A program made the position numbers and the translations under genes. Positions 43,888-44,292 of a stretch of 47,469 bases of DNA are shown piece by piece. Origin of the DNA: a virus (Duplodnaviria > Heunggongvirae > Uroviricota > Caudoviricetes); IMG/VR virus record IMGVR_UViG_2877274432_000010. One strand, 5' to 3'. A model generated the notes under the pieces. It worked only from the letters and a program-made list of their open reading frames with translations. It made no database searches and was not told where the DNA came from. Positions within the stretch are counted from its first letter, which is position 1. The number at the start of each line of letters is the position of its first letter.

Positions 43888-44292
43888 TGTTTCAGTTAAC
43901 TGTGAATAGCTTGCTTGCACCGTATTGTTCTTGTTTTTCGGTTAGTTAAACATCGTACTTCATATTTGAACGTTCTGCCGGAATGCATTATCAATAGAGG
44001 TAAAGTCGCAACCCCAAATCGTAAAGGAAACCGTAGCACGTCGTATGCAAGAACGTGCCACGGCTGGCTGATGGATGTTCGATAGCGCGAGTTTGAATGA
44101 AAATCAGCCGGAGATGATTTTACATAATTGCTACGGAATTATTCAATACAGGAATTGCTTGCGTCTGCATGGATTGACCTGAAATATTCCCGAAAATTTC
44201 TCTAAAAAACTCGAAAAAAATGGTAACTGGTTGAATGGGTAATGCTGCCAACTTACTGATTTAGTGTATGATGGTGATTTTAAGGTGCTTGC

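Follow-up and report, generated by a model that had tools for sequence, protein, structure and literature searches.

A conserved structured module, probably read leftward, beside the ipaH cargo slot of a lambdoid prophage remnant

The window analysed here, a 47,469-nucleotide stretch of DNA from a virus of the Caudoviricetes (IMG/VR record IMGVR_UViG_2877274432_000010), carries two copies of a sequence of about 95 nt, one directly following a tfa gene and the other lying beyond ipaH. The explanation that we favour, with a probability of roughly 0.6, is that this flank is a conserved non-coding RNA module of the leftward strand, a DinI-type 3' UTR with terminator, which bounds a slot for cargo genes, occupied here by ipaH. 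The module forms a sequence family with a fold maintained by covariation, occurs in several kinds of genomic context and lies at the boundaries of gene cassettes. Its function is probably that of a terminator or a 3'-UTR regulatory RNA.

The two copies in the window and the ipaH locus

The original prediction was that a flank of ~70 bp following tfa, at 22916–22985, recurs at 44031–44100. This is borne out: on proper alignment the two segments are related, as found with MAFFT (22916–~23020 with 44029–~44125), with blastn (84.8% identity over 66 bp, 22923–22988 against 44036–44100) and with a covariance model. The 24-nt hairpin core, GCACGTCGTATGCARGAACGTGCC, is present exactly twice in the window, with none expected from 100 shuffles. 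The covariance model, R1, trained on 15 copies from unrelated phages, matched only two places in the whole window, both on the minus strand: copy 1 at 22910–23003 (87.7 bits, E = 1.7e-20) and copy 2 at 44023–44115 (78.4 bits, E = 3.8e-18). Each is full length and their mutual identity is about 80–85%. The similarity extends about 50 bp beyond the segments first proposed, and the inverted repeat is longer than first described, with a stem of 11–12 bp at 22918–22950 and 44031–44063.

In copy 1, the hairpin referred to below as hairpin 2 (22918–22950, minus strand) begins 7 nt past the tfa stop codon. The arms of stem 1 (22953–22958 and 22992–22997, minus strand) contain two mismatches (GCCUAG versus CCAGCC), which may reflect decay of this copy; the same mismatches also generate a stop codon in a short ORF, MQKIRKIDNA. 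The sequence TAAAAT, resembling a −10 element, lies at 23010–23005 (minus strand). Beyond it, on this promoter side, a lambda-type flank gives way to the end of a sitABCD-like ABC transporter operon (23112–26561, minus strand; Pfam ABC-3 and ZnuA), cargo that lies on the opposite side of the element. The copy 1 allele is also found in EIEC and in several viral contigs. Both helices of copy 2 are intact, with hairpin 2 at 44031–44063 and the arms of stem 1 at 44066–44071 and 44104–44109 (all minus strand), where GGCUGA/UCAGCC includes a compensated pair; its fold has a minimum free energy of −31.4 kcal/mol (z = −3.98). A consensus scan found a promoter-like TTGAAT-18-TAAAAT at 44117–44146 (minus strand), which would be placed to start the RNA of copy 2 a few bases before stem 1.

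Several other RNA features are present in the window. A group II intron domain match in Rfam (29262–30875, minus strand) adjoins a 507-aa ORF that is probably the intron-encoded protein. Two pairs of isrK and C4-antisense RNA (10940–11141, plus strand; 39270–39458, minus strand), one of them adjoining an ORF of the Rha/Ash antirepressor type (38877–39509), mark two prophage immunity/antirepressor modules in opposite orientations. There are also a sok (CssrC) antitoxin RNA (7819–7993, plus strand), a cluster of four tRNA genes (13209–13516, plus strand) and the ALIL frameshift pseudoknot of an IS3-family element (31871–31987, minus strand).

The two tfa genes (22288–22911 and 41233–41856, both plus strand in the ORF list; Pfam DUF4376) are covered by a repeat, 41115–41826 against 22170–22881, which is 98% identical and ends 30 bp short of the tfa stop codon; the last 30 bp of tfa differ between the two loci. 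Upstream of the second tfa (40589–41344) there are transposase-like fragments and no tail-fibre gene. As predicted, this tfa is followed by a terminator-like hairpin with a T-run (41972–41993, found by the scan between tfa and the ipaH stop codon), then by ipaH, with the flank only beyond ipaH; the T-run is on the plus (tfa) strand and not on the ipaH strand. A search with filters off found no remnant of the element between the second tfa and ipaH.

The ipaH gene itself (42036–43751, minus strand) encodes 571 residues with Pfam LRR_TTSS and NEL E3 ligase domains. Upstream of it lies a MxiE box, GTATCGTTTTTTTACAG (43871–43887, minus strand), an exact match to GTATCGTTTTTTTANAG where none is expected, so that at the motif level the proposed MxiE-regulated promoter is supported and ipaH appears to have a promoter of its own. 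Its leader and that of the pINV ipaH genes share 96.8% identity. The unit in common with the virulence-plasmid genes ipaH7.8/9.8 (41985–43972, minus strand; blastn to pINV-type plasmids) extends past both ends of the gene, by ~50 bp beyond the stop codon and by ~220 bp ahead of the start codon. The GC content is 0.32–0.44 over 43050–43950, the AT-rich 5' half of ipaH with its leader, against 0.50–0.57 in tfa and the 3' half of ipaH.

To the right of copy 2, an IS1 (44238–45007, plus strand, 99.9% identical to 18407–19175) lies between the element and attR and breaks the homology to two ipaH-less prophage loci (L007 and L008). With IS1 taken out, 44016–44237 and 45008–45104 form one prophage right arm, the second part being delimited by blastn to K-12 (L009) and to L007/L008. 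From 45105, a point within sdsR/ryeA, the sequence is homologous to the K-12 chromosome on into pphA. Of K-12 sdsR just the final ~31 nt are left beside pphA, and the Rfam match to SraC_RyeA at 45019–45139 is weak and sub-threshold. pphA is split by an IS element at 45718–46980, the sequence on either side of this IS being 45008–45717 and 46981–47469; we read it as IS600 from the sizes of its ORFs only. All that is left of the ipaH "prophage" is tfa, ipaH, the module and attR. That chromosomal ipaH genes lie in prophage remnants is already known, and effector cargo downstream of tail-fibre genes is likewise well documented.

E. coli prophages without ipaH at the same sdsR/ryeA–pphA site have the same right arm, from 44016/44022, at 95–98% identity. 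To the left of the element one of them has pinE and another a tail-fibre gene and a ykgJ-like ORF; where ipaH sits here, an O45:H2 STEC prophage at this site has a ykgJ-like ORF. The features on either side of ipaH are found adjacent to one another in related phages, and its base composition is unlike that of its neighbours. From the ipaH-less prophages at this site and the contexts in which the element abuts tfa or a tail-fibre gene, we conclude that ipaH, with its MxiE box and low-GC leader, occupies a cargo slot, and to this extent its description as an inserted moron is supported.

The further suggestion that a simple insertion had split one tfa–flank junction is not supported. The tfa genes are 98% identical, whereas the flanks are about 85% identical and the last 30 bp of tfa differ, so the two loci are different mosaics and not one split junction. 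Elsewhere, at ipaH loci such as L025 and L132, a methyltransferase gene is followed immediately by a counterpart of the segment 44070–43871 (85.6% identity), which takes in the leader, the MxiE box and hairpin 2; the end of tfa and the 3' half of ipaH are also found again, at 96–99% identity. The hairpin half of the element therefore travels with the ipaH leader in such loci, which argues against a clean insertion between tfa and the flank; tfa, ipaH, its leader and the hairpin have accordingly spread among prophages as a recombining unit. At L025 2340–3067 (likewise in L132, L138 and L127) the methyltransferase-like gene ends directly at a copy consisting of hairpin 2 only, which leads into the ipaH leader, so that an arrangement of this type comprises two tandem cargo genes, each set apart by a hairpin.

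Distribution and genomic contexts

Nearly every lambda-like prophage of E. coli carries the module. By blastn, it is found in 5395 of 5426 complete E. coli genomes, at 17130 places (median 3 per genome), and it is present in 197 phage records, among them lambda, HK97, phiP27, phi80 and many Stx phages. Scans with the exact core place it in Escherichia, Shigella, Citrobacter, Salmonella arizonae, Trabulsiella and Pantoea; matches in unrelated taxa are on short, low-coverage contigs and look like contamination. In lambda the module lies in the b region, between ea31 and ea47, and there are two copies on the leftward strand, one on either side of ea47 (L003 1897–1989 and 3486–3580, roughly 22.56–22.66 and 24.15–24.25 kb on the standard map). 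One scores 105 bits; the other, at 37 bits, starts 7 nt after tfa and is degenerate yet retains hairpin 2. In HK97 the module has tfa on one side and the annotated sib site and att core on the other, in phiP27 it comes after the last tail gene, near attR, and in VT1-Sakai it separates a DinI gene from a ykgJ-like gene, where the record annotates a putative SOS box and promoter serving both dinI and the ykgJ-like gene.

A copy is also fixed in the core chromosome. In K-12 it lies between ecpE and ykgJ (NC_000913.3 304209–304302, equivalent to L006 2210–2303, minus strand), ~27 nt upstream of the ykgJ start codon. This copy is found in essentially all E. coli and is structurally intact, with compensated changes in its stems. 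IS009/EcsR2 lies on the opposite side of ykgJ. With the same layout as the right end of VT1-Sakai, the ykgJ locus looks like an old, fixed prophage end.

Comparison of 88 distinct contexts, with a cut-off of at least 100 aa for convergent and same-strand downstream ORFs, showed three recurrent neighbours. A DinI-like ORF (PF06183) on the same strand ends 15 or 34 nt upstream of the module in 36 of the 88; a convergent ORF (tfa, tail fibre or Pin invertase) ends no more than 45 nt downstream in 26; and a same-strand ORF starts within 320 nt downstream in 25. Most commonly the module comes straight after a DinI-like gene and runs up against the end of a convergent tail-fibre or tfa gene. Neither copy in the window is at a DinI 3' UTR, the sequence upstream being the end of sitD for copy 1 and the prophage right arm for copy 2. 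The same-strand ORFs include NleG, GmrSD, DUF4145, a GIY-YIG protein, an SDH-protease-like protein, a methyltransferase and lambda ea47. All the cargo ORFs found have the orientation of the module and start 20–300 nt past hairpin 2, and a second, degenerate copy of the module often follows the cargo gene.

These contexts bear directly on whether the flank belongs to tfa. It does often abut tfa or a tail-fibre gene, as in the 26 contexts just mentioned, and in copy 1, phiP27 and HK97 the element follows tfa at once; in addition, the RNAs CssrB and EcOnc47, considered below, suggest that plus-strand transcripts end at the hairpin. The flank might then be tfa's own downstream region or terminator, read on the plus strand, with ipaH simply inserted between the two. 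We regard this as unlikely. The element is found just as often after pinE, tail-fibre genes, ea47 and ykgJ, and also where no tfa is nearby. No U-run follows the hairpin on the plus strand, and stem-loop 1 would lie outside a plus-strand RNA that ends there. The mosaic tfa junctions and the association of the hairpin with the ipaH leader in other ipaH loci point the same way. Being near-universal in E. coli and part of an opposite, leftward transcription unit, the module is not a sequence of tfa's own.

The co-orientation of the cargo is what would be expected if the module were instead a promoter and leader or attenuator acting in cis on the same-strand gene (ykgJ and its phage-borne relatives, ea47, NleG and, possibly by read-through, ipaH). 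The placement of the core copy just upstream of ykgJ, that of the VT1-Sakai module between dinI and the ykgJ-like gene and the conservation of a −10-like hexamer are all in keeping with this. The 26 contexts in which the only downstream gene is convergent are not, and folding of six ykgJ-type leaders revealed no conserved pairing of loop 1 with the downstream leaders of the kind that an anti-terminator would form; ipaH, moreover, has its own MxiE-dependent promoter region. On balance such a role in cis seems somewhat doubtful.

Mosaic junctions lie immediately on either side of the element and duplicated copies bracket cargo genes, as might be expected of a DNA-level site for att or recombinase action, or of a passive stretch of boundary homology with no function as RNA. 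The att cores, however, are elsewhere: the junction here is near 45105, about 190 bp past the element when IS1 is discounted, and the HK97 core is likewise about 190 bp away. The element is also common to phages with different integrases and att sites. Together with the compensatory changes that keep both helices, and an excess of G-U pairs specific to one strand, this makes a purely DNA-level role quite improbable.

Fold, covariation and strand

Read as RNA from the minus strand, the module consists of a TAnAAT hexamer, stem 1 with its loop, hairpin 2 and often a U-rich tail, and the loops of its two helices are both nearly invariant. Stem 1 has 6 bp (GGCUGG/CCAGCC) around a near-invariant, C/A-rich loop of 33 nt, AAAUCAUUCAAUACUCGCACUAUCGAAAGUUCA; hairpin 2 has 12 bp, sometimes with one bulge, and a conserved 11-nt loop, UCUUGCAUACG. 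Among 83 distinct sequences, in an alignment fitted to the covariance model from which the pair counts derive, 93.3% of the cells are paired and 17 of the 18 base pairs have changed on both sides. There are 142 compensated cells compared with 31 ± 8 after shuffling (none of 500 shuffles reached as many) and at most 47 when the partners are slid. RNAalifold applied to an unfitted MAFFT alignment gave the same two helices with 11 compensated pairs, and the fold z-scores of single copies range from −1.7 to −4.0.

This pattern also disposes of the idea that the element is the decayed 3' end of a protein-coding gene (ending in ...AARRMQERAAVGW and a stop on the plus strand, or the ORF MQKIRKIDNA on the minus strand). 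Both window copies are open to a stop codon in one plus-strand frame, and in lambda-type upstream contexts a Shine–Dalgarno sequence and ATG open a frame through the element. Against this, the hairpin has 1-nt indels in HK97 and lambda, the ykgJ copy has an in-frame stop and the dinI context has no start codon; with indels and in-frame stops in several copies the frame is not conserved, and the variation tracks base pairing and not codon position. We consider a coding origin highly improbable.

The fold is best read on the minus strand of the window, the strand of dinI and ipaH, which we infer to be the functional one. On this strand the helices contain 100 G-U pairs against 45 A-C mismatches, hairpin 2 is more stable by 1.6 kcal/mol, and the U-rich tail and the TAnAAT hexamer are at fixed positions. 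Read on the late strand, stem-loop 1 falls beyond the hairpin, and its covariation would then require a read-through RNA. On the other hand, the free energy of the whole element favours the G/U-rich late strand by 5.4 kcal/mol, and the only experimental signals found, the CssrB Northern blot and the EcOnc47 Hfq-CRAC peak, are on that strand, opposite to the minus-strand module. In the published Hfq data examined no Hfq signal was found on the minus strand, and the parts of the EPEC RIL-seq supplements examined contain no partner in the ykgJ/ecpE intergenic region. The hairpin may serve RNAs from both directions, which fits its position between convergent transcription units.

The resemblance of the 3' end to a terminator varies between copies. 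At least 6 T are found within 12 nt of the end of the hairpin 2 stem in 43 of 90 copies, and about 40% have no U-rich tail; the minus-strand tails of copies 2 and 1 read GGUUUCCUUUACGAUUU and GCUUCUGUUAUUCC, respectively. The terminator scan called neither window copy, the 11-nt loop being above its limit, and such a loop is long for an intrinsic terminator. At the other end, the TAnAAT hexamer is present at its fixed position in ~78 of 90 copies, and a −35 element with at least 4 of 6 matches in 23% of copies, compared with 12% at random positions.

A loop that is near-invariant and unstructured, between stems that vary with compensation, is the pattern looked for in the seed of a small RNA. 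The module could accordingly act in trans, either as a transcript of its own or cut from the 3' UTR of a dinI-like mRNA, with loop 1 serving as the seed for a conserved host or phage mRNA, and its terminator-like 3' end would suit such a role, for which the sRNA DinR, derived from a dinI 3' UTR (PMC10907235), provides a precedent. However, no target was found: complementary 11-mers in 1.4 Mb of fetched loci belong only to diverged copies of the element. The weak −35 region and the lack of a minus-strand Hfq signal in the data examined also count against it, as does the K-12 chromosomal dinI locus, where a covariance model search found no copy. We treat a trans-acting role as a possibility worth keeping in mind, though not the expected one.

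We return to the reading that we prefer. In the commonest setting the module would be the 3' untranslated end of the DinI-like gene, meeting the end of the convergent late operon head-on. Hairpin 2 would end leftward transcription at this boundary and would probably also cap RNAs that run rightward, CssrB among them. Between the hairpin and the tail-fibre genes there would be a gap, the cargo slot, where recombination in or next to the module would swap cassettes; in the prophage remnant at sdsR/ryeA–pphA this slot holds ipaH with its own MxiE-dependent promoter.

Relation to known RNAs and prophage elements

Searching Rfam at permissive thresholds with four canonical copies gave no family match except to the CssrB hairpin, and a literature search for sequence words of the module found nothing. 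CssrB (RF02799) matches the window at 43880–44062 on the plus strand (151.6 bits; gathering score 76), and hairpin 2 and the last, 3' helix of CssrB are one and the same palindrome. CssrB diverges from ipaH, lies on the opposite strand to the module and comprises only the ipaH leader and the hairpin; the conserved 60 nt of the module past the hairpin, with stem-loop 1, are outside it. CssrB is also limited to ipaH loci, copy 1 and the phage copies scoring only 22–31 bits with its model against the gathering score of 76 (30.3 bits, below threshold, for copy 1 at 22894–22949). In S. flexneri 301 it was detected by Northern blotting as an RNA of ~180 nt, with a 3' end taken from terminator prediction only (Peng et al. 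2011, PMC3071730).

The Hfq-CRAC data of Tree et al. (2014, PMC4104026, Table S2) include EcOnc47, an orphan peak in Sakai prophage Sp15. We place it on the late strand over the A-rich tract and the 5' arm of hairpin 2 of the Sp15 copy (NC_002695.2 2896549–2896642), using an offset of +140–142 between genome versions that was calibrated only at AsxR, 1.6 Mb away. It is thus on the tail-fibre strand, where the module is on the minus strand, has no Northern blot and is not described as a family. Other RNAs considered do not correspond to the module: AsxR, AgvB, HnrS and the Pas sRNAs have other sequences and are located near PR'/Q or within the late region, EcOnc22 maps between the J and I genes, the EcOnc31 region has no match to the covariance model, and EcsR2/IS009 is on the other side of ykgJ from the module. 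As far as we could find, the module has no Rfam family of its own and is touched only at its edge by the candidate sRNAs CssrB and EcOnc47; it could reasonably be proposed as a new RNA family.

A parallel in position is DinR of Klebsiella pneumoniae, which comes from the 3' UTR of the LexA-controlled chromosomal dinI (PMC10907235). Like DinR, the module would be non-coding RNA at the 3' end of a dinI-like mRNA, in the 36 contexts described above. The DinR seed is specific to Klebsiella and the gene is the chromosomal dinI, whose K-12 locus has no copy of the module. The tI/sib region of lambda offers another comparison, being a leftward-strand RNA hairpin in the att-proximal, non-essential region, and in HK97 the annotated sib site is immediately upstream of the module. 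The sequences are unlike, however; the stem of hairpin 2 is only 12 bp, and the lambda module is about 3.5 kb from att.

Juhala and colleagues in 2000 and Tobe and colleagues in 2006 reportedly described morons and exchangeable loci for effectors that follow the tail-fibre genes of lambdoid phages. As here, cargo including NleG and ipaH lies between the tail-fibre genes and the prophage end. We know of no such description in which a structured, conserved module is singled out as the constant edge of the slot. The moron concept is quoted in PMC4104026.

A bolder proposal, which we put forward only tentatively and hold to be rather improbable as it stands, is that the module is an unnamed regulatory RNA, near-universal in lambdoid phages, present twice in lambda and domesticated at ykgJ, whose invariant loops would bind an mRNA, an sRNA or a protein and so gate the cargo of the slot, be it T3SS effectors (ipaH, NleG) or defence genes (GmrSD), perhaps coupled to SOS-induced dinI. 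In any case, a two-hairpin module with strong covariation that lambda shares with over 99% of E. coli genomes goes beyond the placement of ipaH. If it is a functional RNA, it would provide a fixed landmark for locating the cargo slots of lambdoid prophages and would be a candidate regulator tying the state of the prophage to its virulence and defence cargo.
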